From a virus, in the IMG/VR virus record IMGVR_UViG_3300036772_000425, positions 74,924 to 138,923 of that record: a DNA stretch of 64,000 nt; one strand, 5' to 3'. The notes below the pieces were generated by a model. That model was not told the DNA's origin, did not search any database, and was given only the letters and a program-made list of their open reading frames with translations. A program made the translations under genes and the position numbers. Below, one piece after another: positions 16,721 to 63,476 of this stretch; positions within the stretch are counted from its first letter, which is position 1; every line of letters begins with the position of its first letter.

Positions 16721-17194
16721 TCAGACGTCCTCGGCCTTACACCGTTCCCTGGTCTCCATGAGCAATTTTCCGAGCCAGTTCTGGCCTGCACCGCGGCACA
16801 CGCCCCAGAAGCGATCGTTCCAGCTGTTTCCCTCGATCAGTTCAGCTTCTTCGGTCGCCAGCAGCATCGCCCTGAGCAACGGGTTCTTGAACTTCTCACT
16901 GAGACACATTCGCATCACCTCCACCTTTCGAGCGTCCCAATCGGGAGCAAGCTGGCAGGATTGACCGAGACGCTTTGCGACACCTGGGCTTCGAGCCTCC
17001 CGGATCATCTTCTGCGTGACGGGATCTGAGGACTTTGCAGCCTGGTACGCATGCTCCACGCTCGGGTACCGAACACCGTCGAGCCAGATCGATGCCTCGT
17101 GGAAGTTGCTGAGGAACCCGAACGTTCCCGTGAAGGAATCGATCACGGGTTCAGCGCATGGCAGTTCAGGTTGCCTCGTGCTGTCCATGTTCAT
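16721..17194 (-). CDS. NADAR (YbiA-like, DUF1768) domain protein
   Basis: 157 aa; FGFLSNFHEASIWLDGVRYPSVEHAYQAAK...RFWGV matches the NADAR/YbiA signature. Confidence 0.7.
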   Translation of the reverse strand: MNMDSTRQPELPCAEPVIDSFTGTFGFLSNFHEASIWLDGVRYPSVEHAYQAAKSSDPVTQKMIREARSPGVAKRLGQSCQLAPDWDARKVEVMRMCLSEKFKNPLLRAMLLATEEAELIEGNSWNDRFWGVCRGAGQNWLGKLLMETRERCKAEDV

Positions 17195-17685
17195 GCACCT
17201 GTCGATGTTGAATGGTGTACCACGTATGGGATGCAGGCAACGATGACCCTGCGGACCATGTCAGCAGTTCCCTTGCTGGACTCCAGGTTGTCGTGGAAGA
17301 CCAGACATTCATCGAGCGGTTCATCTTGCCTGTTCTCGGTGTCAATCATCAGCTGGTTCCTGATCGGGCCAGCGGCCCGCCCGTGCTTGCTCCAATCGGC
17401 TGGGTACCCCCGGACGATGAATCCTAGCGTCTCAGCGACGACGGCACAGGTGTTGTCGGCTCCCTTGCATGCACCGTGCACCAGGATGGTGCCTGGTCGG
17501 TACACCTTGAGCGCCTCGACGATCGACTGCACGTCAGACCAGTTTCGATCACCCGTGATCAGGATCTTCCTGACCGACCGGTCCTCGGGCAGCCTCCTAC
17601 GCTCCTCGGGGTCGCGCCGATCGTTGTGCCGGCGATCGGGCTTGACGCGCCTGATCGTGCCTCCACGTCGAGCTTCATTGTCCAT
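17191..17685 (-). CDS. SLOG/DprA-like Rossmann-fold nucleotide-binding protein (DUF2493-like)
   Basis: Trimmed to ATG at 17685 to avoid the tRNA; motif ILITGDRNWSD...VHGACKGADN...AAGPIRNQLM; ATGA overlap with the NADAR gene. Confidence 0.45.
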   Translation of the reverse strand: MDNEARRGGTIRRVKPDRRHNDRRDPEERRRLPEDRSVRKILITGDRNWSDVQSIVEALKVYRPGTILVHGACKGADNTCAVVAETLGFIVRGYPADWSKHGRAAGPIRNQLMIDTENRQDEPLDECLVFHDNLESSKGTADMVRRVIVACIPYVVHHSTSTGA

Positions 17686-17687
17686 GG

Positions 17688-17761
17688 TGCCCCCGGCAGG
17701 GTTCGAACCTGCGACCTTCTGTTTCGTAGACAGACGTGGTATCCTGCTCCACCACGGAGGC
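17688..17761 (-). tRNA. tRNA-Arg(ACG)
   Basis: acceptor gcccccg/cggaggc; T-arm gcagg-gttcgaa-cctgc; loop cuacgaa. Confidence 0.7.
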
Positions 17762-17770
17762 GACGTTCCT

Positions 17771-18169
17771 TCACCAACCGAAACGGTCCTGGCGCTCGCG
17801 ATCATTCTGCATGATCAGGGACAGGTTGCCGGCTTCTTCTGCTTCTCGCTGGCGTGAGTTCTCCTCACGCGTGCGACGTTCGTGTTCGTCAGACCGCGCG
17901 AGCTCCTTTGCGTAATTCTCTTGCTGGCGAGCCCGAGCGAGCCCAGCGGCGTAACCACGATTGTACGCAACCTCTTCGATCTCTGCCCTGGTCTCTGCCT
18001 CCGTCTTTGTCCGGACAGGTTCGACGGTTTCATCGATGATTTTTTGCCATCGGTCCACGGAGGGTTCGTCCACGTGGCGTTCGTTCCTCATCTGGATGTT
18101 TTCAAGAGCTGTTTTGATCTTTTGTTTCTTTGGAGCGGTCATCAGCATCACCAGTTCCCATCGTACCAT
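17771..18169 (-). CDS. hypothetical coiled-coil/charged protein (start uncertain)
   Basis: 132-aa ORF, R/E-rich. Confidence 0.3.
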   Translation of the reverse strand: MVRWELVMLMTAPKKQKIKTALENIQMRNERHVDEPSVDRWQKIIDETVEPVRTKTEAETRAEIEEVAYNRGYAAGLARARQQENYAKELARSDEHERRTREENSRQREAEEAGNLSLIMQNDRERQDRFGW

Positions 18170-18817
18170 CGGGACAGGCGAAACTTCATGCCCGTCCGAT
18201 GGTCAGTTACCAGGTCGTCCTGTGTCCTGTACGTTCGAACCTTGTCACCGCGTTGACCTGAACCCACCTGGGTCTTCCGTTCTGATTCACGAAGCCTGTT
18301 CATCCTTTCGGATTCAACGTCATGGATCCTGGCTGCAAGGACCTTCAGGGCGGTGGCCCTGTTCTGGTGCTGCGACCTTTCGTTGTCTATCCTGACCTGG
18401 ATTCCTGTGGGGCGATGAACAGCGATCACGCACGACTCTGTCTTGTTCCTGTTCTGCCCGCCCGACCCGGTGCCGCGTGCTGTCGTCACGACAACATCCT
18501 TCTGATCCAGGTGAAAACCAGCAGACATCTCAGGATCCATCACCGCGACGGTGACCGTCGATGTTTGGACCCTACCACGCTTCTCGTTGGGAGGGACCCG
18601 CTGCCATCGGTGACCGCCTGCCTCGTTAGCGTACAGTGACCTGCATCCGGGCCCCTCTACCGTGAAAACGACCTGACCGGGCCTTTGATCGATCAGCTGG
18701 ACGTCAAAGACCCCTCTGGGCCGCAACGTTGCAGTACACGCGAAGCTGATCCTTGACAAGGAGCTTCGCATCGTCGCCGCCCTCGGCGGCCCGGATCTCG
18801 ATGATGATCGTTTCCAT
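18148..18817 (-). CDS. class-I release factor RF2-like (domains 2-4, GGQ motif) with +1 programmed frameshift at CUU UGA C
   Basis: Frame 0 from ATG 18817 (METIIIEIRAAEGGDDAKLL...AAQRGL) stops at UGA 18706-18704 within cagAGGGGuCUUUGAC; the +1 frame continues DVQLIDQRPGQV...SGGQNRNKTESCVIAVHRPTGIQV; the joined product aligns contiguously with RF2 domain 2. Confidence 0.65.
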
Positions 18818-18819
18818 TT

Positions 18820-19281
18820 TCACTCCATGAAATCGTAGTAGTGCTCTTCGAGCAGGGTCCGGTACACCCTCATGTTTGGATGGTACCGACTGAAGAAGTA
18901 CCTATCGTCACCCGTTAGAATTTTCGAGAGGGCTGCGGCAACCCCTGGTGACCTGCTCAGGCCAGCATCGCAGTGCACGATGAGCTCTTCCGCATGCGGA
19001 TGTTGCTTGATCGCGTCGAGCACCTGCCGTGCCTGCACCGGGCTGAAGCACCTGGGTTCGTAGTCCCTGACGGCGTCCGGGTGCCGGGACGAGATCTCGA
19101 TCAGGGCCCGATCGTCGAAATCGTGGAACTGCAGCTGCACCAGGGCACACGTTGCCGTGTTGGTCCTCAGCTGAGCCTCTGGTTCACCCGGTGTGCTGAT
19201 GGAGACGATGAGATGCGGATGCGACGGCATCTCGGCACGTTCAGCCTCTGTTCGGCAGAGGACAGTGAACCTGGTGATCAT
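18820..19281 (-). CDS. Cys-based (CX5R) phosphatase, dual-specificity/PTP-like
   Basis: 153 aa; active-site signature VHCDAGLSRSPG. Confidence 0.55.
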   Translation of the reverse strand: MITRFTVLCRTEAERAEMPSHPHLIVSISTPGEPEAQLRTNTATCALVQLQFHDFDDRALIEISSRHPDAVRDYEPRCFSPVQARQVLDAIKQHPHAEELIVHCDAGLSRSPGVAAALSKILTGDDRYFFSRYHPNMRVYRTLLEEHYYDFME

Positions 19282-19586
19282 GGCTCAACGTTCGTCAGGA
19301 TGCCGAAAACGTTCTTCCGGGTGCACCAACCGTTGATGTGACCGTGGTTGTTGCTGATCTGGTAGCGTTCATCGCTACCGATCGCAGTGACCTTGTGCAG
19401 CATCTGCCGACCGTTCACCTTGCACAGGACCGCATCGCCCACCCTGATCTCCCGATCTCCGATCGGCTCCACGGTCACCAGCTGCCCGCTCTGCACGATC
19501 GGGACCATGCTGCCTCCGTGCGGCCTGAACCTCACGGTCCGGCCTGAGAGCAGTTCCTGCACGTGATTTCGATTTCCGTCAGACAT
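19278..19586 (-). CDS. S24 (LexA/UmuD-like) serine peptidase domain protein
   Basis: Trimmed to ATG 19586 (MSDGNRNH...); RFRPHGGSMVP...GDAVLCKVNGRQMLHKV matches the S24 Ser-Lys dyad pattern. Confidence 0.6.
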   Translation of the reverse strand: MSDGNRNHVQELLSGRTVRFRPHGGSMVPIVQSGQLVTVEPIGDREIRVGDAVLCKVNGRQMLHKVTAIGSDERYQISNNHGHINGWCTRKNVFGILTNVEP

Positions 19587-19591
19587 ATGGG

Positions 19592-19664
19592 TACCGGGAG
19601 AGGGACTTGAACCCTCGCTAACCCTGCTTATGAGACAGGTGCTCTGCCGCTGAGCTATCCCGGC
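19592..19664 (-). tRNA. tRNA-Met(CAU) (elongator, initiator or Ile2 not distinguished)
   Basis: T-arm gaggg-acttgaa-ccctc; anticodon stem ccugu/gcagg; loop cucauaa. Confidence 0.7.
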
Positions 19665-19668
19665 ATGA

Positions 19669-19923
19669 TCATGAGAACCAACTACGAACCCTGGTCGCAA
19701 TGCGCCACACGAGCTCCCTGAAGGGGCCCGGATGCATGTCGAATGAGGGACACTCGACGAACTTCCCCCAAGGACGCAGGTCCAGCCCGCGCTCGTAACC
19801 GAGGGCACATCCGCATGCTGCGAAGTAGCTGCCTGGGCAGTTTACGCAACGATGCCACTGGAAATCTTCCGTCTCCATGGGACGGATGAACCAGCCCAGG
19901 ATCATGTACCACACTCTTTTCAT
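19669..19923 (-). CDS. small Cys-rich hypothetical protein
   Basis: 84-aa ORF between two tRNAs; CVNCPGS...CGC. Confidence 0.3.
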   Translation of the reverse strand: MKRVWYMILGWFIRPMETEDFQWHRCVNCPGSYFAACGCALGYERGLDLRPWGKFVECPSFDMHPGPFRELVWRIATRVRSWFS

Positions 19924-21531: not shown

Positions 21532-21573
21532 GAGGCAATGGTACTGTTCTTTTAGTACTTGTATTTGCCTAAG

Positions 21574-21659
21574 TGCCATCGAGGGGATTCGAACCCCTAC
21601 ACCCATTACGGGTACAACGTTCTCAACGTTGCGCGCCTGCCTAATTTCGCCACGATGGC
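21574..21659 (-). tRNA. tRNA-Leu(GAG), class II
   Basis: 86 nt; acceptor gccatcg/cgatggc; T-arm agggg-attcgaa-cccct; loop uugagaa. Confidence 0.7.
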
Positions 21660-44500: not shown

Positions 44501-44505
44501 CGAAG

Positions 44506-44581
44506 CGGGGGAGGATGGGCTTGAACCACCGTCTTCGGACCTATTGCGGTCCGACGCTGAAGTCTACTGAGCTACTCCCCC
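44506..44581 (-). ncRNA. tRNA-like element with 8-nt (or 6-nt) anticodon loop
   Basis: acceptor gggggag/ctccccc; T-arm gatgg-gcttgaa-ccacc; anticodon hairpin cggac-ctattgcg-gtccg. Confidence 0.4.
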
Positions 44582-45525: not shown

Positions 45526-45531
45526 AATGTG

Positions 45532-45602
45532 CTCCCAGAGCTGGCCTTGCACCAGCACCTCCGTGCGTTCTAGCACGGCGCTCTGCCTTGAGCTACCCGG
45601 GA
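45532..45602 (-). ncRNA. tRNA-like element with non-canonical T-loop and 6/8-nt anticodon loop
   Basis: acceptor 7 bp including two G-U; T-arm-like gctgg-ccttgca-ccagc; hairpin ccgtgc-gttcta-gcacgg; D-arm gctc-tgcctt-gagc. Confidence 0.35.
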
Positions 45603-51935: not shown

Positions 51936-52250
51936 CAGGATCGGATCCTGGTGTCCGCACCGTACGTGATGACACCGCTAGCCCAACCGATCGTCTGCAG
52001 GACGGAGTCCTCGTCCGCATGGACATGCCCATCATCGATTGTGAACCACCAGCGTTCATCGTACGACATGGACCCGGTCGAGTGGCTGACGTGGTTCATG
52101 CAATGCAGCCCAAAGTCCACAAAGCATCGTCCGTGCAGCGGGTGCTGCCTGTCGACAGACACGAGCGCGATCCATCCCCATCCATCAGGTGACGGACATG
52201 CATCGCAAACCGCTAGGCCGCATTGGAAGGTGGTTCTCACGATCTTCCCC

Positions 52251-52826
52251 TCAGCGGGGGAGGAACTTCGCAGCCCGGCGTAGCGCAGCCGCGACCACCT
52301 TTGAACGTTGCTTGTACTGGGCGGTGGTGCACGCGCGTTTGTGGTCGCAAACACCGTCGTTGATCCCAGGGATCCTGTCGAGGGCATCCCGGAAGCTCTC
52401 CTCTGAGCTACCGTCGTACCATCCCTCCACATCTTCATCCACGGCGAGGAAGAACCTGCTCCGGAGCTCCGGCGGAACATGCATCTTCTTGATCCGTGCC
52501 TTCATGTCAGCCACGGCGCGGGCCCTGAGGTTGTTCAGGGGCGACAGCTGCACGGCCAGGTCGACCACCTCTTCTTCGTTGATGCGGGTCCGTTCTGGTT
52601 GCTTCCCGGTCATGGCGAAGTACAGCTCACCCAGGCCGCAGTGCATGGAGCGCTTCCCGTCAGTCGGATCTGGACCGTTCTTCAGGGTCCCGCTGCACAG
52701 GCGGAGAAAACGTTTGTTCTTCCCGTCATAGATGGTACGGGCCAGCTCGACCAAGAACCGACGGTCGACGGTGACAGTGGGTTTCCTGGCGCTGCGGTTG
52801 CCCTTCGGTGACTTCCTGATCTTCAT
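52251..52826 (-). CDS. hypothetical basic protein
   Basis: 191 aa; overlaps ORF 51935..52480 in another frame, so one of the two is mis-started. Confidence 0.3.
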   Translation of the reverse strand: MKIRKSPKGNRSARKPTVTVDRRFLVELARTIYDGKNKRFLRLCSGTLKNGPDPTDGKRSMHCGLGELYFAMTGKQPERTRINEEEVVDLAVQLSPLNNLRARAVADMKARIKKMHVPPELRSRFFLAVDEDVEGWYDGSSEESFRDALDRIPGINDGVCDHKRACTTAQYKQRSKVVAAALRRAAKFLPR

Positions 52827-52879
52827 CGTTCTACCACTCCTTCAGTGCAGCCGATCCTACGCATCCGGTGCTACGAAGT

Positions 52880-53101
52880 TCAAGTGATGTTGATGCTCGA
52901 GCCGCCCCTGAAGAGCTGCGCCTCCACCTCACCCCTCTCCACCGACTCCCGGATGACGTACACGTGGGTGGAGCTGACAGCACCCGTGCAGTCCAGGAAC
53001 TGGCACCTGGAACCGACGACCGACAGCACCAGGTACCCATACCAGACATTGTTCCTGATGGGCCCGATCCAGCGCATCACCAGCATGTCACCCGGCAGCA
53101 C
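52880..53101 (-). CDS. small hypothetical protein, PGDML paralog 1
   Basis: 73 aa; MLPGDMLVMRW. Confidence 0.3.
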   Translation of the reverse strand: MLPGDMLVMRWIGPIRNNVWYGYLVLSVVGSRCQFLDCTGAVSSTHVYVIRESVERGEVEAQLFRGGSSINIT

Positions 53102-53312
53102 GGTGGCTGACCAACACCGCTGAACCGTAGTACAACCTGTCCGCCACCGGCATCAGGTTGCGCCGGTGCACCCTGCCGTCGCCCAGGATCCAGAGGGTGT
53201 CGCCCTGCACCTGCAGGACCAGCTCGGTCGTACCGACAGTCGAATCGAGCAGCATGTCGCCCGGGTGCAGCACCATGATCGGGATGAGCCTTCCGGCCAT
53301 GTCAACCCGCAT
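53088..53312 (-). CDS. small hypothetical protein, PGDML paralog 2
   Basis: 74 aa; VLHPGDMLLDS; tandem with paralog 1. Confidence 0.3.
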   Translation of the reverse strand: MRVDMAGRLIPIMVLHPGDMLLDSTVGTTELVLQVQGDTLWILGDGRVHRRNLMPVADRLYYGSAVLVSHRAAG

Positions 53313-54258
53313 GCTTGCCCAATCCCAGCACCAGCAGTCCCTCTGCTGCGTATGACTCTGCGTTCAGGTCCGACGACAGCTGCCCACCCGCCATCGCAGC
53401 CTCCAGCTGTTCCTTGAGCTCGCCTAACCAGGGTCCGGGCGCTGCGCCCGAACGGGCCAGGATGATGCCCATGGTGCCCTTCGGCAACCGCGGTAGGTTG
53501 TCAGCGGCGTACAGTTCCCGGACACGAGCCTCCAGCTCATCGCCCCGGCGCATCGCCGCGGCACGCTTCCGTGGGTTCTTGGTGGTCAGGTCGGCACGTG
53601 ACAGAGCCAGCAACCGCTCGAAACCCCGCATCCCGTCCAGGTCGGTGAGCAACCGGCGGACAGCGCTGTCGGTCCATCCGCTGCTGTAGCCCGCCGGGCG
53701 CAGGTGGTTGAGGACGAGCGACCGGACGGTGCGCAGCAAGGCCACATCCTTTCCGAACAGGCCCAACCTGCGCTCGATGGAACCCACCGCCCGCGCACCG
53801 ACCACATCGTGGTTGTGGAAGCTGACACGGCCCTGCCGGTCGACGGCCCGGGTCTGCGCCTTCCCCACGTCGTGCATCAAGGCGGACCAGCGCATCTCCA
53901 CCGTGGCGGGCACCCCGAGGACCACCTTCTTGGTGTGATCCCAGACGTCCTTGTGGAGCGCAGCCTCCGGGTCGTCGCCCAGGTCACGCAGGGCCTGCAG
54001 CTCCGGGATCAGCGCGGCCAACGCGCCCGACCTGAGGAGCAGCTCCAGGCCTGCGTCCGGGAAGGGTCCGGTCAGCAGGGCGTCAAGGATCGCGCGCACC
54101 TGCACGGGGTGACGCCGCCAGGCATTCTGGTAGTCGCCCTGCCCGAAGATGCGGGGAACCTGCACGTCATCTGGGACGCCCTGCTGGGCACCCAGGGCGC
54201 ACAGATCCAGGACCTCGAGGGCGTCCATCAGTCCCTCCTGTCGCCCCGGGGGTCGCAC
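53302..54258 (-). CDS. HD-domain phosphohydrolase (resembles the C-terminal HD domain of bacterial CCA-adding enzymes)
   Basis: 318 aa; LHKDVWDHT...ALMHDVGK...HNHDV. Confidence 0.55.
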   Translation of the reverse strand: MRPPGRQEGLMDALEVLDLCALGAQQGVPDDVQVPRIFGQGDYQNAWRRHPVQVRAILDALLTGPFPDAGLELLLRSGALAALIPELQALRDLGDDPEAALHKDVWDHTKKVVLGVPATVEMRWSALMHDVGKAQTRAVDRQGRVSFHNHDVVGARAVGSIERRLGLFGKDVALLRTVRSLVLNHLRPAGYSSGWTDSAVRRLLTDLDGMRGFERLLALSRADLTTKNPRKRAAAMRRGDELEARVRELYAADNLPRLPKGTMGIILARSGAAPGPWLGELKEQLEAAMAGGQLSSDLNAESYAAEGLLVLGLGKHAG

Positions 54259-54464
54259 TGGCCCTCGGTGCCGAAGTAGTCCTCGTCCAGCAACCGGTCC
54301 AGCATCCGGTCGAACTCTGCGCAGGCCTGCCGGGCACCCTCGTCCTTCTGCACCCTGTCGGACGTACCGTGGTCGAGCACGTGGGCCACGAACAGCGTGG
54401 CGCGCTCGGCCAGGTTCTTGGGCGTGGTGCTCGCGATCTTCTTCTTCATGCTGTTCTCTCCCGT

Positions 54465-54935
54465 TCAGAGCATCGCGATGACGGTGGGCAGGGAATCCGC
54501 CGCGCCGGAGTAGCTCCGGAGTTCCACGGAGGCGCCCGCCCTGATCAGGGCCTCGGCTGCCTGGCGCGCGAACTCGGCAGAGCCGGCCACCATGATGGGG
54601 GTGCCCAGGGGCGACTCCACCGCCTCCTTCGCCTCCTTCAGGCCCAGGCCCGTCAGCTCCCGGATCACCTTGATGACGTTGATCTTGGCCGTGCCGACGG
54701 CCTGCAGCGACACCGCCTGGCGCCCAGCCGGGACCATCAGCAGGGTCGAGGCCCGGCAGAAGCGGTCGAACAGGTCGGACAGGTGTGCCACGGGCACCAC
54801 CTCCGACATCCGGATGCCCCGGGGTTCCTCGTCCGGCGGGAGCTCTGACCCATCCTCGGCGACCTCCCTGACCACGAAGTCGACCCGGATCCTCGAGAGG
54901 GGTTGGCGGCTGCGCATGCTCTCCATGTTAACCAC
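54465..54935 (-). CDS. protein with ribosomal bL12 (L7/L12) C-terminal domain
   Basis: 156 aa; [56 protein letters not shown] parallels the bL12 CTD ([27 protein letters not shown]...). Confidence 0.55.
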   Translation of the reverse strand: [156 protein letters not shown]

Positions 54936-54959
54936 CCTACCACCGGTGCATCCCAGGTT

Positions 54960-55517
54960 TCACAGCTCCACGATCCATTTGCCGCCGCTCCCCGTGGGCA
55001 CAGCCCCCGCTGCACGGAACAGGGCCCGACCACGTTCGCTCCATGGGAAGCACAGGAAGCGCCGGGCGCCGAGCGCCCGGGACACCTCGATCGCCCGGTC
55101 GACCAGGTGCCGGCCCAGGCCGGCGCCGCGGTGGGGGGCAGAGACGTACACAGCGACCTCCATGTCCCTCGGATCCGATCCCGGAACGACCAGGGCCCAG
55201 GCGATGGGTTCCGCCGGCCTGATGACCCACCCGCACGGTGCTGGGCAACCGTCCAGGGCACGTTCCAGGTGCATCCGCATGTCTGACTCCAGCTCACAGG
55301 TCCCGACCGAGCCCGACGGGAGCTCCCCATCGTCGGGCGCGCGGTTGGTCAGGGGCAGCAGGGCATGCAGCTCATCGGGCACCAACGTACCCAACCCGAC
55401 GACGCGGAGGGCGGGACGGGGCGCCCCGATGGCCTCACGTGAACCCAGGCTGACTGTGATGGGGGGAACAACGGCCGCGCGCGGGCGATTGACGGTGGGC
55501 CTCACGGTGGAGATCAT
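54960..55517 (-). CDS. GNAT family N-acetyltransferase
   Basis: Trimmed to ATG 55517 (MISTVRP...); VAVYVSAPHRGAGLGRHLVDRAIEVSRALGARRF matches GNAT motif A. Confidence 0.5.
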   Translation of the reverse strand: MISTVRPTVNRPRAAVVPPITVSLGSREAIGAPRPALRVVGLGTLVPDELHALLPLTNRAPDDGELPSGSVGTCELESDMRMHLERALDGCPAPCGWVIRPAEPIAWALVVPGSDPRDMEVAVYVSAPHRGAGLGRHLVDRAIEVSRALGARRFLCFPWSERGRALFRAAGAVPTGSGGKWIVEL

Positions 55518-56495
55518 GCTTTCCTTTTCATCCCTTTCAGAGCAGGTGACCGGCGGTGCCGACGGTCGGTGGAATACAGCCGGACGGGCCCAGCTGGTCG
55601 TGCACGGCACGCAGGGCGGTGACCAGGAGCTCGCATGCCGCGGCGAGCTCGGGTTCACCTGAGCCCCGGAGCATGTCGGGCAGCCCAGCGAGCGGCAGAT
55701 CCTGCAGGCGGACCCGCAGGCGAAGCCCGGCCAGGTCGGCAAGCGATCGTTGCAGGGCCCGGAGCTCGCGGGGGTCGAGCTCCATCAGCCGCTCCACCGG
55801 GTCCACATGACCGCGGTGCCCTCGGGACCGTGGGAGACGACCAGGCCCAACCGGTGGTGCGGGGGCTGGTGCTTCGCCGAACGGTGCTGGACCAGGGCGC
55901 CCGGTTGCAGGCACGGGAAGCAGGTGACCAGGCAGGAGGCGAAGAACCCTCCTGCCTGGGCATCGTACCGCTTGAGCTCGGTGCCGGCGGTCAACGGTCG
56001 ACCACCACGCGTTCCAGCAGGGCCTGCAGCTCAACGTGGGCCCCGGGGGCCGCCCGGGTCGGGTACACGCTGACGATCCGCTCGCCGGGCAGCAGCGCGG
56101 CGGCGACCGCCATCACGTCGGGCTCACCGTTCGGGTGGGCCGGGACGGCGACCGTCCGGTACGGGCACGGCCGGAAGGTGGCGGACGACCGGCGCAGGCG
56201 ATCCGGGATGCCGGGGACAGGGGGAACGCTCATGTTCAGAGGATCCTCGGGTCAGCACGGTGGACATTGAGCTCACGCAGGCGTGGGCCGATACGCGCGA
56301 GCAAGGCGATCGCCCGGTGTTGACTGTCGGCGCGCCCGTGGTACCCGGCCACGAGAGCCAGGCGGACGACGCGGCACGCGGCCAGGAGGTCAGGGTCGGG
56401 CAGGTCGGCGAGGGAGAGCCTGCTCGCCAGGTCCCAGAACCCGGCGGCGGGCAGCAGGAACAGGGCATCGCCCAGCTGGGCTGCCGCGCTCCGGT

Positions 56496-56831
56496 TCATC
56501 GACCACCGTCGGCTGCATCAGGGAGCGCCCAGCGAACGCACGGGCAGCGCTGTTCGTATTCCTGGCGCCAGCGAGAGCACCACTGCTGCGGGTAGGCCCC
56601 GGCGTTGCCGTAGTTCCCAGCGGTGAGATTGTTGGTGCGGGTCTCGGTGCACGTCAACCCCGATGGGCGTTCGGTGCAGGGACCCCGCTCTGCGCAGGTC
56701 GGAGCAGGCGCCGCGGGAACCGAGGGGGTGGCTGCGGTCGACGGCCCGGTGTCGGCCGGCATGTCGCCGCAGCCGACCATGCACGCCAGGACGATGATGG
56801 TGAGGTGAGCGAGGGTGGTACGACTGTCCAT
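56496..56831 (-). CDS. putative Cys-rich lipoprotein
   Basis: Trimmed to ATG 56831 (MDSRTTLAHLTIIVLACMVGCGD...); very GC-rich region, frame uncertain. Confidence 0.35.
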   Translation of the reverse strand: MDSRTTLAHLTIIVLACMVGCGDMPADTGPSTAATPSVPAAPAPTCAERGPCTERPSGLTCTETRTNNLTAGNYGNAGAYPQQWCSRWRQEYEQRCPCVRWALPDAADGGR

Positions 56832-57156
56832 ACTCAGCAGGGTACCACGGATGGGCCCAGGGTTGCACTGCCCAGGATCCGGAAGGTGCACCGGCGTGCC
56901 TGGTGGCCCAACCTCAGCTGTGTCTTCATGCGGGTACGTATGGTCGCCCGGCGGAAAACAGTGCACCGGCAGCAGGGATCCCGCGCGGGTCCGGAATTTC
57001 ACGCGTGATTTGTGTGCATACCCCAAGCGGGAGGCCGCCCGAGACCTTCGACAAAGGTTGCCAGCGGGCCGGGGCGGCCCCCCACCCCCTAGAAGGGGCC
57101 GTTTAGGGGGCCGTCGATGGGGCCCTGTGAGGGGCCCCGGGGCCGGGGCGGCCCGT

Positions 57157-57453
57157 TCAGTACAGCGGGTACTCCACGATCGCCCAGTACGGGCGGGTGG
57201 ACAGTTCCGTCCCCGACCACTCGCAGGGTTCGCCCCCGTCCTCCTCCATGTGCTCGCCCTCCGGCTCGCCGTCGAAGTGGGCGAGCAGCTCGGCGTCCTT
57301 CCGGACCTTCATCGCCTCCACCGTCGCCCGGTCGAGCGACACCATCGCCACCTCCAGGGTGACCCCGCTGCCCATCGACACGTCGCCCTCCAGCTGGAGG
57401 ACGTAGGCGTACTGGGACCCGTTCTTCTTGGTCGACTTCTTGGTGGTTTCCAT
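57157..57453 (-). CDS. small protein of the motif-preceded gene array (starts METTKK)
   Basis: ATG 57453 abuts conserved upstream motif copy 1. Confidence 0.5.
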   Translation of the reverse strand: METTKKSTKKNGSQYAYVLQLEGDVSMGSGVTLEVAMVSLDRATVEAMKVRKDAELLAHFDGEPEGEHMEEDGGEPCEWSGTELSTRPYWAIVEYPLY

Positions 57454-57495
57454 GGTCCTAGTATATCCTCCGCGCATCCGAGGTTTCACAGTCGA
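57454..57495 (-). promoter_or_regulatory. conserved promoter-like motif, copy 1
   Basis: coding strand CTGTGAAACC-N18-GGATATACTAGGACC then ATG. Confidence 0.5.
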
Positions 57496-57499
57496 ACTC

Positions 57500-57796
57500 T
57501 CAGGCGATGGCGGTCGCGGTGACCCGCAGGCGGGTCGTGCGGCCGACGATCCGCTCGTCGACGGAGATGAAGCAGTGGCAGTCGGGCAGGGCGAAGCTGA
57601 GGTCACCGTTGACGTAGCCCTTCGACGCCAGGAACCGGCCCAGCGCGCTCTCCGGGTCGAAGTACGCGACCAGCTTGGTGTACGGGTCGTCCTTCGGGCC
57701 CGTGGTGGTGGAGGACACGGTGGGGGAGGCCTCCAGCAGGGCCGCGATGCGGCAGCCGAGCATGGGGGAGATTGCGGTGTGCTTGTTGGTTTCCAT
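57500..57796 (-). CDS. small protein of the array (starts METNKH)
   Basis: internal Met 93 of ORF 57500..58072 coincides with the motif; ATG GAA ACC. Confidence 0.5.
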   Translation of the reverse strand: METNKHTAISPMLGCRIAALLEASPTVSSTTTGPKDDPYTKLVAYFDPESALGRFLASKGYVNGDLSFALPDCHCFISVDERIVGRTTRLRVTATAIA

Positions 57797-57838
57797 GGTT
57801 CCAGTATAACCCCGACGGGATCCCGGATTCACCGGGAT
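57797..57838 (-). promoter_or_regulatory. conserved promoter-like motif, copy 2
   Basis: GGGATCCCGGTGAATCCGGGATCCC...GGTTATACTGGAACC then ATG; -35-like element sits inside an inverted repeat. Confidence 0.5.
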
Positions 57839-57855
57839 CCCTGTCGAGGCCGGCG

Positions 57856-58167
57856 TCAGACCGCGTAGCGGGAGTTGAAGTCGTCCAGCAGGCTGCGCTC
57901 GGTGCGGACCATGCCGACCTCCCTGAGGTGCGACAGCGTCCGCGTGATCGACAGCGTCAGGGTCAGCGGAGCGGCGGGCGCGTTGCCGCTCATGAGGGTG
58001 ATGAACTCCATGACCACCTCGTTGCGGGGCGTGATCCCCACGACCCTGAGGGTCAGGCGCTCGAAGGTCCACTCGTCCCCCACGTTGAGGTGTTCCTTGT
58101 CCAGGCGGCGTTGGACGCGCTCGGTGAGGACGGGGGCCGTGCGGTTGCAGCTGCAGTTGGTTTCCAT
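57856..58167 (-). CDS. small protein of the array (starts METNCSCN)
   Basis: ATG 58167 abuts motif copy 3. Confidence 0.5.
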   Translation of the reverse strand: METNCSCNRTAPVLTERVQRRLDKEHLNVGDEWTFERLTLRVVGITPRNEVVMEFITLMSGNAPAAPLTLTLSITRTLSHLREVGMVRTERSLLDDFNSRYAV

Positions 58168-58209
58168 GGTCCTAATCTACCAGGATCGGGACCGTGGATT
58201 CACCGACGA
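58168..58209 (-). promoter_or_regulatory. conserved promoter-like motif, copy 3
   Basis: GGTGAATCCACGGTCCC...GGTAGATTAGGACC then ATG. Confidence 0.5.
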
Positions 58210-58356
58210 TTCAGACAGCGTCCAGGAAGCGGACCGCCGCCCGGTGCACCCGGTAGTCGTGGGGGCGCAGGGCCTCGCCCCTCTCGGAGGCGGAGATGAC
58301 CTGGTCCAGCGCATGGAGGGCGACGTTCCGCAGGAAGGAGATGATGAGGTGTTCCA
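58177..58356 (-). CDS. small protein of the array (59 aa, MEHLIISFLRNV...)
   Basis: ATG 58356 abuts motif copy 4; TAG stop lies inside the next motif; below the ORF-track cutoff. Confidence 0.4.
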   Translation of the reverse strand, partial: WNTSSSPSCGTSPSMRWTRSSPPPRGARPCAPTTTGCTGRRSASWTLSESSVNPRSRSW

Positions 58357-58398
58357 TGGTGTCCAGTCTACCTTCCGCGCATCCGAGGTTTCACAGCG
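58357..58398 (-). promoter_or_regulatory. conserved promoter-like motif, copy 4
   Basis: TGTGAAACC...GGTAGACTGGACACC then ATG. Confidence 0.45.
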
Positions 58399-58592
58399 TT
58401 CCGAGGGCCAGGCTGACGACCCAGAGCCACAGCACCGTCGCCAGCACGGTGGCGAGGGCGGTCAGTTCATCGTGCTCGACCGAGCGGTCGATCCGGACCA
58501 GCGTACCCTTCAGCATGTCCCATCCTACCTTCTGCGTGCCCCCGGATTCACCCTTGAGAATCCGGGAGGGCTGGGAGGTTTAACCCCTCAGA

Positions 58593-58898
58593 TCAGAGCT
58601 CGCCGCACTCGGTGACCGCACCGGAGCCCTGGACCAGCTCGCGGGGAGCGTGGCATCCCCACACCTTCCGCGACGGGCGGGCGGCGGGGGCGACCGGGCG
58701 TTGGCCGACGATGACCATGTTCCCCATGACCTGGACGGGAGCGACCGGCGCCTGGACCGCCGCCGCGACCGGGCGGTGGGTGACGGGCGCCTCGGCTGCC
58801 GCGACCGGGGTGGGTGCGGCGAAGGCGAGGAAGGCGAAGGACGCCGTGGCGATCAGGGAGAGGACGGTGCCGAGAACCTGCTTGGTGGTGGTCTTCAT
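58593..58898 (-). CDS. small secreted protein of the array (signal peptide MKTTTKQVLGTVLSLIATASFAFLAFA)
   Basis: internal Met 118 of ORF 58593..59249 coincides with motif copy 5. Confidence 0.5.
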   Translation of the reverse strand: MKTTTKQVLGTVLSLIATASFAFLAFAAPTPVAAAEAPVTHRPVAAAVQAPVAPVQVMGNMVIVGQRPVAPAARPSRKVWGCHAPRELVQGSGAVTECGEL

Positions 58899-58940
58899 GG
58901 TATCAGTATACCTCCGTTGGGATGGGGTTTTCACTGGGAA
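58899..58940 (-). promoter_or_regulatory. conserved promoter-like motif, copy 5
   Basis: AGTGAAAACC...GGTATACTGATACC then ATG. Confidence 0.45.
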
Positions 58941-58968
58941 ACTTGGGGGCGCTCGGTGCGGACCATGC

Positions 58969-59391
58969 TCACTGCCAGTACTCCCACCCGGTGAGGTCCT
59001 TCGTGGACACCATCCACCCGCCGGGGGTGCTGGGGATGAAGAGGAGCGGGTACACCGTGTCGCCGGGCACGTACTGGGTGGGCCCGTGGGGTGAGACGCA
59101 GCAATCCTCGTTCTCTGCCCACCAACCGATGAGGACGGCGTCCTCAGATCGGGTGTTGAAGATGAGGAACTTGGGTTCGCTGTCATCGAACCAGGTGTCC
59201 TGAGCCTCGTGGACGATCCCACGGAGCAGGAGGTACGGGCACCAGTCACCCTCCTCGTTGACGGTGAATGCGCCGTAGGTGTCCGGGATGACCGGATGGG
59301 CGAAGAGGTGGGTCACCGTGACGGGTCCCGGGTTGAGGGAATCCGGGGTGATGGAAGAGTTGATGAGGGCCTGAGCTGCGGTGGTGTCCAT
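58969..59391 (-). CDS. small protein of the array (starts MDTT)
   Basis: ATG 59391 abuts motif copy 6. Confidence 0.5.
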   Translation of the reverse strand: MDTTAAQALINSSITPDSLNPGPVTVTHLFAHPVIPDTYGAFTVNEEGDWCPYLLLRGIVHEAQDTWFDDSEPKFLIFNTRSEDAVLIGWWAENEDCCVSPHGPTQYVPGDTVYPLLFIPSTPGGWMVSTKDLTGWEYWQ

Positions 59392-59433
59392 GGTCCTAAT
59401 CTACCACGAATGGGATCCCGGATTCACCGGGAT
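59392..59433 (-). promoter_or_regulatory. conserved promoter-like motif, copy 6
   Basis: GGGATCCCGGTGAATCCGGGATCCC...GGTAGATTAGGACC then ATG. Confidence 0.5.
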
Positions 59434-59447
59434 CCCATTGGGAGGTC

Positions 59448-59810
59448 CTAGGCCCGGGCGCACCTACGACCGGCGGGCGTCAGGGAGTACGTCAGGCGAC
59501 CCGTGGAGGTGCGCCCGGTGATCCTCACCAGCCCGTTGACGATGACGGAGTAGCGCGCCTCGTCGTGGAACCCTCGGGGCCCACCGTCGTGCATCCTCCG
59601 GAAGTAGCACCGGTTGGAGTCGCCCGACAGCTCCGGGTTCACCCTCCCCATGATCTCCAACCGGGTGCTCCCGGGGTGGGAGAGGAGGTCCTCACAGATC
59701 GACTTCATCTTGGGGGACCGGTGCTGGAGACCCCTCGGGAGACTCCTCCGGTGCTCGAGCGCGGGGTGGGAGAGGTAATTCGAAGGGGTGATGGGGGTGT
59801 TGGTGTCCAT
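59448..59810 (-). CDS. small protein of the array (starts MDTN)
   Basis: ATG 59810 abuts motif copy 7. Confidence 0.5.
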   Translation of the reverse strand: MDTNTPITPSNYLSHPALEHRRSLPRGLQHRSPKMKSICEDLLSHPGSTRLEIMGRVNPELSGDSNRCYFRRMHDGGPRGFHDEARYSVIVNGLVRITGRTSTGRLTYSLTPAGRRCARA

Positions 59811-59852
59811 GGGTCCAATCTACCTCAGATGGGATCCGGGATTCACTCCTGA
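59811..59852 (-). promoter_or_regulatory. conserved promoter-like motif, copy 7
   Basis: AGTGAATCCCGGATCCC...GGTAGATTGGACCC then ATG. Confidence 0.5.
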
Positions 59853-60070
59853 TCCAGGTCGATCAGCTGCCCAACCACCGTCACCGTGTACTCGACGCGC
59901 AGGTTGGGCGCCGTCGGGTGGTGGTTGAACATGGTGAAGCTGGCGACCTCACCGGTGGGGGTCTGCACCGTCGTCGGTTCATGGTCGCTCGAGTCGGTGT
60001 CGACCGGGATCCGGTGCTGGGAGAACGCGTTGATGATCTGCTGGGCGATCAGGGTGGGCTTGATTTCCAT
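59843..60070 (-). CDS. small protein of the array (starts MEIK)
   Basis: ATG 60070 abuts motif copy 8. Confidence 0.5.
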   Translation of the reverse strand: MEIKPTLIAQQIINAFSQHRIPVDTDSSDHEPTTVQTPTGEVASFTMFNHHPTAPNLRVEYTVTVVGQLIDLDQE

Positions 60071-60112
60071 GGTCCTAGTCTACCACAACCGGGACCATGG
60101 ATTCACCCCGAT
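60071..60112 (-). promoter_or_regulatory. conserved promoter-like motif, copy 8
   Basis: GGTGAATCCATGGTCCCGG...GGTAGACTAGGACC then ATG. Confidence 0.5.
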
Positions 60113-60113
60113 G

Positions 60114-60317
60114 TCAGCGGGGGAGGCTGCGCACCCGCTTCAGGATGGCGGCGATCTCCCCGTACGCCTTGTTCCAGTCCTCGGCGTTGAGGCCCTGATC
60201 GTCCAGCGCGGAGATCACCTGCGTTGCGGCACCCTCCGCGTACTGCAGCTTCTCCTCCACGTCGGCGGCGGCCTCACGGCGTTGCGTCAGCAGGTCGGTC
60301 TTCTTGGTTCCAGGCAT
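60114..60317 (-). CDS. small protein of the array (MPGTKKTDLL...)
   Basis: internal Met 20 coincides with the variant motif GGTACAACCGATCATG. Confidence 0.45.
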   Translation of the reverse strand: MPGTKKTDLLTQRREAAADVEEKLQYAEGAATQVISALDDQGLNAEDWNKAYGEIAAILKRVRSLPR

Positions 60318-60359
60318 GATCGGTTGTACCTCAGATGGGGGTTTGGGTTCACCCGGTGA
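60318..60359 (-). promoter_or_regulatory. conserved promoter-like motif, copy 9 (variant)
   Basis: GGTGAACCC...GGTACAACCGATC then ATG. Confidence 0.4.
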
Positions 60360-60627
60360 CGGGTTGAGCTTCACCGAGCCAGCGCATCTGCAGCGAGAAC
60401 ATCTCCTCGTCGGTCATCTGCTGGTCACCTCCCAAGCACTCCGGGCACGTCCAGAGGCGGAGGTCCAGGCCGTGTTCGCAGCAGGAGCACACCTGGTCGA
60501 ACGGGTCCACGTGGATGTCGGAACCGGAGCCCAGCTCCTTCTCCGACATGGCGAAGAGGCCGAAGAGCTCACGCTCCTCGTCGTTGGACAGGACGGTGAG
60601 CTTGCAGTTGGGGCACTTGGTGTCCAT
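60349..60627 (-). CDS. small Zn-ribbon-like protein of the array (CPNC...CPEC)
   Basis: ATG 60627 abuts motif copy 10. Confidence 0.5.
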   Translation of the reverse strand: MDTKCPNCKLTVLSNDEERELFGLFAMSEKELGSGSDIHVDPFDQVCSCCEHGLDLRLWTCPECLGGDQQMTDEEMFSLQMRWLGEAQPVTG

Positions 60628-60669
60628 GGTCCTAGTCTACCTCGGTTGCAGAACGGGTTTCACCCTCGA
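60628..60669 (-). promoter_or_regulatory. conserved promoter-like motif, copy 10
   Basis: GGTGAAACCC...GGTAGACTAGGACC then ATG. Confidence 0.5.
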
Positions 60670-60692
60670 GCGGGCGCTCGGCACGCGTGTCC

Positions 60693-60887
60693 CTAGGGCT
60701 GTGCCATCATCTGGAGGCACTCCGTCCAGGCGTGTCTGTACGCCCGAACCTCGGACGTGCTGGGTGCATGGCCCAGGGCACGGGTTGCGGCCTCCCAATC
60801 GGGCGTCTCCGAATCGTTCCCGGCTCCGATGGACGCATCGTGCGCCGTCCGTTCCAGGAGACGCTTCACTGCGGGGGTGATTTCCAT
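60693..60887 (-). CDS. small protein of the array (starts MEIT)
   Basis: ATG 60887 abuts motif copy 11. Confidence 0.5.
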   Translation of the reverse strand: MEITPAVKRLLERTAHDASIGAGNDSETPDWEAATRALGHAPSTSEVRAYRHAWTECLQMMAQP

Positions 60888-60929
60888 GGGACCAGTCTAC
60901 CCCTTTCGAACCCGATCATTCACCGGTGC
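60888..60929 (-). promoter_or_regulatory. conserved promoter-like motif, copy 11
   Basis: GGTGAATGATCGGG...GGTAGACTGGTCCC then ATG. Confidence 0.45.
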
Positions 60930-61067
60930 CAGCCTGACGATCTCGCCCCGCTGCGTCCGGACCATCGCCACCGTCAGCTCGTAGGTCAGGTGGGACCTGA
61001 CCACGATGCGCTCCTGGGTGCCCGGGGAGCGGGTGAAGATGACCTCGAAGGGTTGGAAGGTGTTCAT
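60897..61067 (-). CDS. small protein of the array (MNTFQPFEV...)
   Basis: internal Met 32 coincides with a variant motif. Confidence 0.45.
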   Translation of the reverse strand: MNTFQPFEVIFTRSPGTQERIVVRSHLTYELTVAMVRTQRGEIVRLAPVNDRVRKG

Positions 61068-61109
61068 GATCCTGTTGTACCCTGGATGATGGGTTGGGTT
61101 CACCCCTGC
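61068..61109 (-). promoter_or_regulatory. conserved promoter-like motif, copy 12 (variant)
   Basis: GGTGAACCCAACCC...GGTACAACAGGATC then ATG. Confidence 0.4.
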
Positions 61110-61513
61110 GGATGGACGCCGTCGTTGAAGCTGTGGAACATCACGCCGCCGATCACCCACCGCGGGTTCGCAGGAGCGTACGCTCGCCAGTCGCTGCGGG
61201 TCCGGCGGGTGAACTCGGTCCGTGCATGGAAGGTGACGATGTCGTCACGGTCCGCAGCGATGGTGGCGATCAGGTCCTCCGTGGTGACCGAGCCCATGTC
61301 CAGCAGCACCTTCAGGTGCCCCGCCGGGCACCAGTACCCGTCCGCGGTCAGGACCTGGACGGTGCCCACCTCGTCCACCAGTGCATCCACCACCGTGGAG
61401 GAGCGCCCGGCGGTCGGACCGGTGACCTGCCTGACGCGCTTGCCGATGAGCTGTTCTGACTCCTCGGAGATCATGACCTCGATGCCGCCGACGACCTTGG
61501 TGTTCGTGTTCAT
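61100..61513 (-). CDS. small protein of the array (starts MNTNTK)
   Basis: ATG 61513 abuts motif copy 13. Confidence 0.5.
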   Translation of the reverse strand: MNTNTKVVGGIEVMISEESEQLIGKRVRQVTGPTAGRSSTVVDALVDEVGTVQVLTADGYWCPAGHLKVLLDMGSVTTEDLIATIAADRDDIVTFHARTEFTRRTRSDWRAYAPANPRWVIGGVMFHSFNDGVHPQG

Positions 61514-61555
61514 GGTCCTACTCTACCCAGGATGGGATCAGGGTTTCACGGTGTG
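61514..61555 (-). promoter_or_regulatory. conserved promoter-like motif, copy 13
   Basis: GTGAAACCCTGATCCC...GGTAGAGTAGGACC then ATG. Confidence 0.45.
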
Positions 61556-61813
61556 ATTGCCACCGCACACGTAGCACATGGAACCGGGTCCGGCAGGGAG
61601 GCGGCACGAGCACTCGCGTTCCTGGAAACCGGGAGCCACGTACCTGAAGGGCATGCTGAAGTGGGCGGACCGCAGCTCCACGCCCACCCGGTCTGGGGCA
61701 CCCTCCATGGGCTCCACCGTGATCTCGATGCTGTGGATGTCCGATCCGGGGTACCGGACCTTGTGCTCTTCGATGATCGCCCGGGCCCGTTCCAGCATGG
61801 TGTCGGTGTGCAT
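61538..61813 (-). CDS. small Cys-containing protein of the array
   Basis: ATG 61813 abuts motif copy 14. Confidence 0.5.
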   Translation of the reverse strand: MHTDTMLERARAIIEEHKVRYPGSDIHSIEITVEPMEGAPDRVGVELRSAHFSMPFRYVAPGFQERECSCRLPAGPGSMCYVCGGNHTVKP

Positions 61814-61855
61814 GGTACCAGTCTACCCCGGTTGCGGTTCAGATTTCACCGCGTC
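61814..61855 (-). promoter_or_regulatory. conserved promoter-like motif, copy 14
   Basis: GGTGAAATCTGAACC...GGTAGACTGGTACC then ATG. Confidence 0.45.
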
Positions 61856-62301
61856 CTGAGGAGCGCCTGCGCGGCCGTCACCCGGCGGCACAGGTCCTGC
61901 TCCCGACCCGTGAAGTGGTGCCGGGTGGAGATCCGCAGCTCCTTCCCGCAGTGCGGGCAGGAACGCGTGTACGGCGAGGCGCTGGAGAGCTCGATCACCT
62001 CCAGCGCCAGGAGGTCTCCCAGGTTCGGGTTGAAGGTCCGGTAGGCTCCGGGCGTCCCGGCTGCGTTGTCACGTTCGTTGACGATCAGGGTGAAGACCAC
62101 CTCACCCCGGGAGGTGAACCACAGCGACGACAGCGCGCCGGTGAAGTGGTGCCGGCTGATCCCCTCCGCCTCCGCGCGCTTCGCCTGCTGCTGGGCCAAC
62201 GGGGTCGCCGGGCGTCCGGCCAGGTAGGAGACGAAGAGCTCTGAGCCCGGGGGGACGTGCCGCAGCTTCAGGAAGGCATCGACGGGGCTGATGGTGTCCA
62301 T
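61846..62301 (-). CDS. small protein of the array with internal RHHFTG duplication
   Basis: ATG 62301 abuts motif copy 15. Confidence 0.5.
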   Translation of the reverse strand: MDTISPVDAFLKLRHVPPGSELFVSYLAGRPATPLAQQQAKRAEAEGISRHHFTGALSSLWFTSRGEVVFTLIVNERDNAAGTPGAYRTFNPNLGDLLALEVIELSSASPYTRSCPHCGKELRISTRHHFTGREQDLCRRVTAAQALLRTR

Positions 62302-62343
62302 GGGTCCAATCTACCTCCTTTGGGCCCTGCGCTTCACCCTAGA
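62302..62343 (-). promoter_or_regulatory. conserved promoter-like motif, copy 15
   Basis: GGTGAAGCGCAGGGCCC...GGTAGATTGGACCC then ATG. Confidence 0.45.
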
Positions 62344-62623
62344 ACCGGAGCCTGCCGCTGGCGGGCGGCCACGACGCGAACTGTCCCTCTTCCAACCAGC
62401 GATCCACCGCCTCCGGCGTCAGGCGACGGGCCGTGTCGCGCCAGTGCGCCAGCAGGACGAAGTCCACGACCTGGTCGGCCGTCTTCGGTGCGGGGCTCCA
62501 GGGACGGACGGTGGCACGGATGGCGTACGATCCGTCGACGGCAGGGTCAGACTCCAGCAGCAGCTCCTGCACCTGCAACCCAGTGTACAGTTCCACGCCC
62601 AGCTTGATGGTGTCCTTGATCAT
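62339..62623 (-). CDS. small protein of the array (starts MIKDT)
   Basis: ATG 62623 abuts the variant motif GGTACAACAGATCATG. Confidence 0.5.
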   Translation of the reverse strand: MIKDTIKLGVELYTGLQVQELLLESDPAVDGSYAIRATVRPWSPAPKTADQVVDFVLLAHWRDTARRLTPEAVDRWLEEGQFASWPPASGRLRF

Positions 62624-62665
62624 GATCTGTTGTACCTCAGATGGGGGTAGGGTTTCACTCAGGCC
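62624..62665 (-). promoter_or_regulatory. conserved promoter-like motif, copy 16 (variant)
   Basis: AGTGAAACCCTACCCCC...GGTACAACAGATC then ATG. Confidence 0.4.
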
Positions 62666-62825
62666 TGATGTCAGCGAGCGCGATGCCGATCACCTCATCG
62701 CAGACACCGCTGCACCGGAGCAGTTCCTTGATCTCAGCTGCCGAACTGTCGGCGTCTGCGTGCTTGGCGATCAGGTCGTATGCCCTGGAGAGCTCCGCGG
62801 CGAGCTCGACACGCGTGCTAGACAT
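62655..62825 (-). CDS. possible translationally coupled small ORF (56 aa)
   Basis: ATG overlaps the TAG stop of the upstream gene (ATGTCTAG); no motif of its own. Confidence 0.25.
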   Translation of the reverse strand: MSSTRVELAAELSRAYDLIAKHADADSSAAEIKELLRCSGVCDEVIGIALADIRPE

Positions 62826-63144: not shown

Positions 63145-63186
63145 GGTTCTAGTCTACACCTTGGGTTCCTTGGGTTTCACCGCGAT
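63145..63186 (-). promoter_or_regulatory. conserved promoter-like motif, copy 17
   Basis: GGTGAAACCCAAGG...GGTGTAGACTAGAACC then ATG. Confidence 0.45.
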
Positions 63187-63447: not shown

Positions 63448-63476
63448 TTTATTCGATGGGCCGGTGTCCGTGGCTC

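Follow-up and report, generated by a model that had tools for sequence, protein, structure and literature searches.

A release factor (RF) gene on the minus strand (18817-18148) of a 64,000-nt stretch of viral DNA (positions 74,924 to 138,923 of IMG/VR record IMGVR_UViG_3300036772_000425; hereafter the window, to which all coordinates refer) was found to encode an RF1-derived class-I release factor made up of domains 2-4. Its coding sequence is divided between two reading frames at CUU UGA C, and, judging by the sequence, a +1 frameshift at this site is very likely: the same shift is needed in about 70 independent relatives from phages, metagenomes and bacterial genomes (41-72% identity). We consider it fairly probable that synthesis of this compact factor is gated by the CUU-UGA slip, with the UGA acting as a trans-sensor of termination by host RF2. 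A preliminary description of the same DNA had proposed a truncated RF2-like factor with a prfB-type shift without stating the strand; all of the features that it quoted sit on the minus strand.

An interrupted gene of RF1 lineage

The first open reading frame (ORF0) extends over 37 sense codons from the ATG at 18817 to the CTT at 18709-18707 (18707..18817, on the minus strand, as are all parts of the gene) and encodes the start of RF domain 2, METIIIEIRAAEGGDDAKLLVKDQLRVYCNVAAQRGL, including the GG-x-D helix tip which is the counterpart of RF1 G116/E119. It terminates in frame 0 at the TGA at 18706-18704, in the context CAG AGG GGT CTT TGA C, where a Shine-Dalgarno (SD)-like AGAGG within CAG AGG (18713..18717) lies 3 nt (GGU) upstream of CUU. 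The shift site itself spans 18703..18709: skipping the T of TGA leads into frame +1 at GAC (18705-18703), the first codon of an ORF of 185 codons (18148..18705, with its own TGA stop at 18150-18148), which contains SGGQNRNKTESCVIAVHRPTGIQV and encodes the rest of domain 2 and domains 3 and 4. As proposed, the gene does need a prfB-type +1 shift at CUU UGA C, 3′ of an SD-like element. The +1-frame ORF carries the decoding loop HRWQRVPPN (18586..18612), with PPN at the place of the RF1 PxT motif, Q181 kept and V180 replaced by W, and the GGQ motif of peptidyl-tRNA hydrolysis (18454..18462; SGGQ, residues 118-121), which is invariant in 83/83 family members.

The joined product of 222 aa matches the Pfam domains PCRF (profile positions 101-194 of 194, i.e. 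the last 94) and RF-1, and its alignment to RF1 proteins of solved structure runs through the junction uninterrupted, with ...RDLFNMYLRFAEEMGFETEVLDSHP in Thermus thermophilus RF1 corresponding to ...KDQLRVYCNVAAQRGLDVQLIDQRP in the joined product. A GGAG ribosome binding site (RBS; 18823..18826), read from the sequence, is found 5 nt 5′ of the ORF0 ATG, and the stop codon of the preceding PTP-like gene (18822-18820) is placed between the two (GGAG TGA AA ATG), which suggests that the PTP-like and RF genes are translationally coupled.

Comparison with NCBIfam models yielded 210.9 bits for prfA, 132.5 for prfB, 98.2 for PrfH and 30 for ArfB. RF1 is the best-scoring family, with profile positions 113-332 of 361 covered, and its equivalogs TIGR00019 and NF001859 gave 210.3 and 210.9 bits without reaching their cut-offs of 423.25 and 400; the RF2 model TIGR00020 scored lower than RF1 (132.5 bits against a cut-off of 370), as did the PrfH model TIGR03072 (98.2 bits against 166.65), and the ArfB/ICT1-type match was confined to residues 96-130; the curated cut-off was reached by none of the four. 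In an alignment of 27 members, all matched the RF1 models, the best E-value being 6e-71 for RF1 and 3e-45 for RF2, and a sequence search of the Protein Data Bank (PDB) gave 1.5e-46 for RF1, 1.3e-25 for RF2 and 7.8e-15 for PrfH. The AlphaFold2 model (pLDDT 86) could be superimposed on ribosome-bound RF1 with a TM score of 0.91 and a root-mean-square deviation of 1.9 Å, compared with TM scores of about 0.87 for RF2 and 0.69 for PrfH. The label "RF2-like" therefore had to be abandoned: prfA leads prfB by 210 to 132 bits, RF1 is far ahead in the PDB search, Q181 and T194 are kept, and there is no SPF tripeptide. An ArfB/ICT1-type rescue factor was rejected, since the protein has the full codon-reading superdomain, and so was a PrfH-RtcB rescue module, given the PrfH score below cut-off and the lack of RtcB among the neighbours.

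The description of a phage-borne class-I factor devoid of domain 1 stands. The first residue of the protein corresponds to residue 107 of T. thermophilus RF1 (residue 112 in E. coli), the model spans only domains 2-4, and the N-terminal domain 1, which contacts RF3 and the L11 stalk, is absent from the 222-aa product. Domain 1 is known to be dispensable for codon-specific peptide release, and truncated RF1 is functional in vivo (PMC1586002); by analogy, the contact with RF3 was probably lost along with the domain.

Conservation of the early stop codon

We examined relatives on 23 viral contigs, 80 metagenome contigs and 9 bacterial-genome contigs. In tblastn comparisons, 68 of the 103 first-fetched loci left frame 0 for frame +1 at residue 37, and all eight loci that appeared to be "C-terminal only" and had enough upstream sequence also switched frame there. 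Residues 1-37, read in frame 0, are conserved in the viral-contig relatives, with 48-86% identity. The preliminary description had named conservation of the slippery site in homologues as its own test, and the outcome was in favor of the shift: CTT-T, always followed directly by a stop codon, is present in 59 of 59 distinct relatives that shift at this position. All 53 non-identical sites have CTT as the P-site codon; the stop is TGA (41), TAG (10) or TAA (2), the base after the stop is C (38) or G (15), and CGG AGG NNN directly precedes CTT at most sites. Elsewhere in these genes CTT accounts for only 16% of Leu codons, and the pattern greatly exceeds what chance would give. Third positions carry little information in frame 0 upstream of the site and in frame +1 downstream of it, so that the periodicity flips exactly at the site, indicating that this is precisely where the coding frame changes. 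Synonymous third positions -10 and -7, within CGG AGG, are 83-90% G, as opposed to 0.1-0.6 bit at most other third positions. Read from the alignment, the family consensus (GGAGG, 3-nt spacer, CUU, stop) is the geometry of prfB. Of the SD-like element described earlier, its presence was borne out and its placement was not: family conservation favors (G)GAGG followed by a 3-nt spacer, not AGGGG abutting CUU.

The conserved site also occurs in the published 485-kb phage LR745208 and in Myxococcota metagenome-assembled genomes (MAGs). In three betaproteobacterial isolates, Thiobacillus denitrificans DSM 12475 (L114; NZ_AQWL01000017.1), Novimethylophilus kurashikiensis (L116) and Achromobacter anxifer (L117), CTT TGA C is located 7 codons farther downstream, and these strains could serve as experimental systems. 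No close nucleotide match was found among deposited phages, and cultured phages (mycobacteriophages, phiPsa374-like) yielded only small proteins matching the GGQ domain, and not this RF family. The closest 119 protein clusters in a large protein database are mostly 170-210 aa long and start with ..GGVF(D/E).., the result of reading GGGGUCUUUGA in frame +1; the N-terminal EIRAAEGG segment is found in 13 of them and is missing from 106, indicating that gene callers truncate these genes and that inventories of phage translation genes under-report or mis-describe them. No stimulatory RNA structure was detected at the shift site (fold z-score -0.08; no relevant Rfam match). A local hairpin pairing the shift site with a downstream segment (GGUCUUUGAC ... 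GAUCAAAGGCC; 18650-18715, minus strand) can be drawn; the stability of the overall fold does not exceed that of shuffled sequence.

About 23 AT-rich relatives, including published phages of 635-735 kb, have no frameshift and carry one or two in-frame UGAs instead. This was the case for 18 of the 20 unique metagenomic loci without a frameshift, with all TGAs falling between residues 38 and 60, as well as for the Bacteroidetes MAG L110 and four published 635-735 kb phages (LR745206, LR756504, LR756501 and LR756502). In L038/L043 (GGG TAT TGA CTG) and L052/L055 (CTG TGA ATG), the in-frame TGA coincides exactly in position with the stop of the shift site. The base after the TGA is A or C at all in-frame sites, and these are weak termination contexts in E. 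coli. Recoding of TGA (code 4) was considered and rejected, as flanking genes of up to 657 aa with up to 18 TGG codons have no internal TGA; furthermore, several flanking genes of the in-frame-UGA loci end in TGA, and TGG invariably encodes the conserved Trp of HRWQR. These phages use the standard code in flanking genes and are not TGA-recoded, and the in-frame UGA variants are peculiar to this one gene within them. The source paper on huge phages reports only UAG reassignment, in some of the genomes (PMC7162821).

In an approximate neighbor-joining tree, the AT-rich read-through clade is basal, and members with UAG, UAA or in-frame UGA, as well as those without interruption, are scattered through the frameshift clade. 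Genes with no interruption at all are few (L035, L040, LR756511 and 13 protein clusters). Since L038/L043 and L052/L055 keep the TGA at its position after having regained the frame, the early stop codon, as judged from these sequences, is retained through several changes of recoding mechanism. The in-frame-UGA sisters thereby offer a natural experiment in which frameshift and read-through gating can be compared within one protein family.

Decoding pocket and possible regulatory logic

Decoding residues, in T. thermophilus RF1 numbering, were compared in 83 family members. G116 and T194 are kept in the family as well as in the window, and Q181 is kept in 77 members and in the window. E119 is replaced by D in 83/83 members, V180 by W in 75, and H193 by Q in 46, with D, W and Q, respectively, in the window. 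At P184-x-T186, the PxT motif of RF1 is found as P-P-T in 66 members, and the window reads P-P-N owing to T186N. No member has SPF, with Ser at the first position of the tripeptide in only a few (e.g. SPT). By sequence, then, the lineage is that of RF1 and the decoding pocket is not canonical RF1. Neither T186N nor H193Q was significantly correlated with the identity of the stop codon: all seven frameshift-type members with Asn186 have UGA, against a UGA background of 77%, which is not significant.

Some members depart further from the common pocket. Those of the largest phages (L107/L108, from LR756501 and LR756502), as well as L017/L022, carry HCF(V/I)R instead of HRWQR, so that the third-base reader Q181 becomes V or I, as in RF2, with P-P-T kept; such a combination might restrict reading to UAA. 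In the frameshift-type member of the 485-kb phage (L104, LR745208.1), the decoding loop is shortened (HRVQRT----SNGRIHSS) and has no PxT tripeptide.

In the mechanism that we propose, a ribosome carrying peptidyl-tRNA-Leu on CUU would slip +1 to UUU rather than terminate at UGA, probably with the aid of the SD-like GAGG 3 nt upstream, and the full-length factor would be made only after such a slip. Since slip and termination would compete, the yield of the factor should rise when termination at the site is slow. Judging by its decoding residues, the product would most likely read UAA and UAG, with the UGA being read by host RF2; as UGA should lie outside the range of an RF1-type factor, the codon may report host RF2 activity or termination load, and the site would thus sense termination capacity in trans while phage tRNAs flood the cell, rather than being a self-sensor of the prfB type. 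Relatives may reach similar gating by in-frame UGA read-through or by CUU-UGA at another codon. For the family at large, the chances appear about even that its members are made only when stop-codon reading falters, an early stop having been placed repeatedly in at least three architectures: the CUU-stop +1 site at codon 37/38, the same cassette 7 codons downstream, and one or two in-frame UGAs.

Several points weigh against the trans-sensor scheme. The frameshift is deduced from sequence alone, and both its dependence on release factor levels and the codon specificity of the product are what we infer; the pocket changes E119D, V180W, H193Q and T186N leave RF1 specificity an assumption. The SD-like element of the window (AGAGG-GGU-CUU-UGA-C, GAGG) is weaker than the GGAGG of the family, and such an element is missing altogether from some relatives (e.g. 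CTC CAT CGT CTT TGA). An RF1-type product would close no feedback loop at UGA, making the logic less tidy than that of prfB, and TAA ends only about 3% of the window genes, so that relieving RF2 of UAA would bring a small gain.

The closest competitor is autoregulation as in prfB, in which a factor with broadened or shifted specificity would terminate at its own shift site and repress itself. The cassette of SD-like element and CUU-UGA-C is the one that serves RF2 autoregulation, the early UGA is kept across the three recoding architectures, and a UGA reader would be well matched to a phage with TGA at the end of about 73% of its genes; the occurrence of UGA, UAG and UAA at the site would suit an omnipotent factor, and the pocket changes specific to the family (E119D, V180W, H193Q, and T186N in the window) can be cited in the same sense. 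Most members, however, keep the RF1-type Q181, P-x-T and T194, none has SPF, and both HMM and structure comparisons group the family with RF1, which leaves autoregulation possible but rather doubtful; on the sequence evidence we slightly favor the trans-sensor. Alternatively, the stop codon combined with slippage or read-through could simply set a low, constant level of a potentially toxic factor without any sensing. Overexpression of release factors does lower fitness (PMC12421855), stop identity at the site varies, and some members have no SD-like stimulator. Yet a weak RBS would do the same at no cost, the early stop persists through changes of mechanism (L038/L043, L052/L055), and the A or C after every read-through TGA, if such contexts are indeed weak, points to selection on competition with termination; fixed attenuation explains the conservation poorly, and we regard it as improbable.

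It could also be asked whether there is any recoding at all. One extra T in CTTTG, introduced by an assembly indel or in a decaying pseudogene, would give the same picture, and gene callers annotate only the downstream ORF, which might be expressed from its own ATG (MRSS..., 18771). Both sequence error and expression of the downstream ORF alone had been listed beforehand as explanations that would overturn the frameshift. The former is excluded by the interruption and invariant CTT-T shared by some 70 independent assemblies. As to the latter, no start codon in frame +1 is conserved, position -28 being C in 68% of relatives, which abolishes the ATG derived from TAT-GCN, and the 37 upstream frame-0 codons are under protein-level constraint and encode the helix tip needed for recognition of the first stop base. 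The run of three Ts is, in addition, too short for transcriptional slippage. Artefact or decay is thus extremely improbable.

Known counterparts and genomic context

The prfB gene is the textbook example of a regulatory +1 frameshift, thought to be confined to RF2, with a shift site at about codon 25/26, in domain 1. The phage gene resembles it in having a slippery CUU, a stop that is mostly UGA and often followed by C, and an SD-like element 3 nt upstream, and in encoding a class-I RF, so that the frameshift competes with termination. It differs in being RF1-derived and in having the site at codon 37/38, in domain 2, as had been pointed out in the preliminary description; because the position in the protein is different, the phage site is not homologous to that of prfB and probably arose independently. 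That an RF1-derived phage gene has this cassette at a position without a prfB counterpart speaks for convergent evolution, as well as for stop-codon competition being a general means of metering termination factors. In addition, UAG occupies 10 of the 53 phage-family sites and 0 of 8,164 prfB sites (PMC12421855), sister genes of the phage family use in-frame UGA, and the family resides on phages and mobile tRNA arrays. Self-sensing in the phage gene, unlike that in prfB, is unproven.

Among other factors, RF1 (prfA) is the best match by HMM, sequence and structure, sharing the fold of domains 2-4, GGQ, Q181, T194 and, in most relatives, PxT; the phage protein differs from it by the lack of domain 1, a shorter C-terminal tail, a score of 210 bits against the 423-bit cut-off, the family-wide or common E119D, V180W and H193Q, and PPN in the window. 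More than 12,000 bacterial genomes have been surveyed without a programmed frameshift being found in prfA or UAG at any prfB site (PMC12421855), and in RECODE every CUU-stop +1 site belongs to prfB (PMC10885494). PrfH (RFH), which is paired with RtcB, likewise lacks domain 1 and is about 200-220 aa long, but its similarity to the phage protein is weak (98 bits; 7.8e-15 in PDB), the phage gene has no adjacent rtcB, and the phage factor keeps the RF1-type stop-reading residues and has a recoding site absent from PrfH. The only viral analogue mentioned in PMC5009743 is the eRF1 of giant viruses of the Megavirus/Mimivirus type, which is expressed by read-through and frameshifting: it too is a viral termination factor that needs recoding at stops for its own synthesis, although it is of eukaryotic type, comes from an amoeba virus, and differs in protein family, host domain and signals. 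Control by an early in-frame UGA in RF genes was hypothesized decades ago; the same paper reports that "none" has been found and that an RF1 counterpart is "also unknown" (PMC5009743).

Members of this RF family are carried by the published huge phages LR745206, LR745208 and LR756501/02/04/11, each of which has a single RF match. RF1 and RF2 are listed as gene content or "code-change" genes in Al-Shayeb 2020 (PMC7162821) and in the Borges 2021 preprint; the word "frameshift" is absent from both texts, which were not searched for in-frame UGA or missing domain 1. The phages examined here use TGA as a normal stop. Full-text literature searches returned no account of a phage RF gene that is frameshifted or interrupted by UGA. 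What is new is the lineage of the gene, where the site lies, the variety of stop codons found there and the alternative read-through form; the mechanism itself is known. If our reading is correct, this would be the first programmed frameshift in a gene of the RF1 lineage and the first natural control of a bacterial-type RF gene by early in-frame UGA read-through. The family could then conceal a bacterial-type RF with altered or omnipotent codon specificity, and an unusual specificity might be of use in genetic-code engineering.

The window has a GC content of 60% and contains 56 tRNA genes, with the RF gene in the middle of one array. According to approximate gene calls, about 64 genes end in TGA, 21 in TAG and 3 in TAA, so that TGA is the ordinary and dominant stop codon (about 73%). 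A second, RF2-like RF gene was not found in the window, and no suppressor tRNA was seen in the window or in any of the 118 fetched loci. Outside the RF gene, the phage encodes an accessory tRNA-Leu(GAG) (21573..21659, minus strand), which reads CUU and can re-pair on UUU and, by analogy with the E. coli prfB mechanism, may take part in the shift; tRNA-Asp and tRNA-Glu for the first +1 codon are encoded as well. Genes of the family are frequently located in tRNA arrays: the mean density in the flanks of the frameshift loci is 0.54 tRNA per kb, and 26 tRNAs surround the Thiobacillus copy within 6.6 kb. The presence of RF-1 genes in tRNA arrays was noted earlier, together with the suggestion that extra tRNAs may need extra termination or rescue factors (PMC5966550). 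The RF gene ties large phage tRNA arrays to termination control and provides a testable handle on translation fidelity in huge phages.

Neighbors of the RF gene in the window include the PTP-like gene, a 132-aa ORF, and YspA-SLOG, NADAR and S24-like genes, with no RtcB in sight. The order S24-peptidase-like, PTP-like, RF1-like, YspA/SLOG, NADAR is common to close relatives (window 16721-19808, minus strand; L001-L003, L024-L029 and L045). The PTP-like protein is small, with an HCxxGxxRS motif and a weak DSPc match. The window NADAR gene was confirmed by Pfam, and a probable NADAR gene, judged by eye, is found nearby in Achromobacter.

Two ARAGORN calls of type "tRNA-???" at 44505-44581 and 45531-45602 (both minus strand) have the four-base anticodons caat and agaa, and both fold into cloverleaf-like structures, in which the anticodon stem has 6 bp with a loop of 6 nt or, alternatively, 5 bp with a loop of 8 nt. 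These tRNAs could either decode quadruplets or be defective, which is of interest in a phage relying on frameshifting. Finally, the GC content rises from about 0.57-0.61 to 0.65-0.68 at 52000-64000, with ORF GC at third codon positions (GC3) of 0.8-0.95, and this part of the window could be a compositionally distinct module or a recent acquisition.

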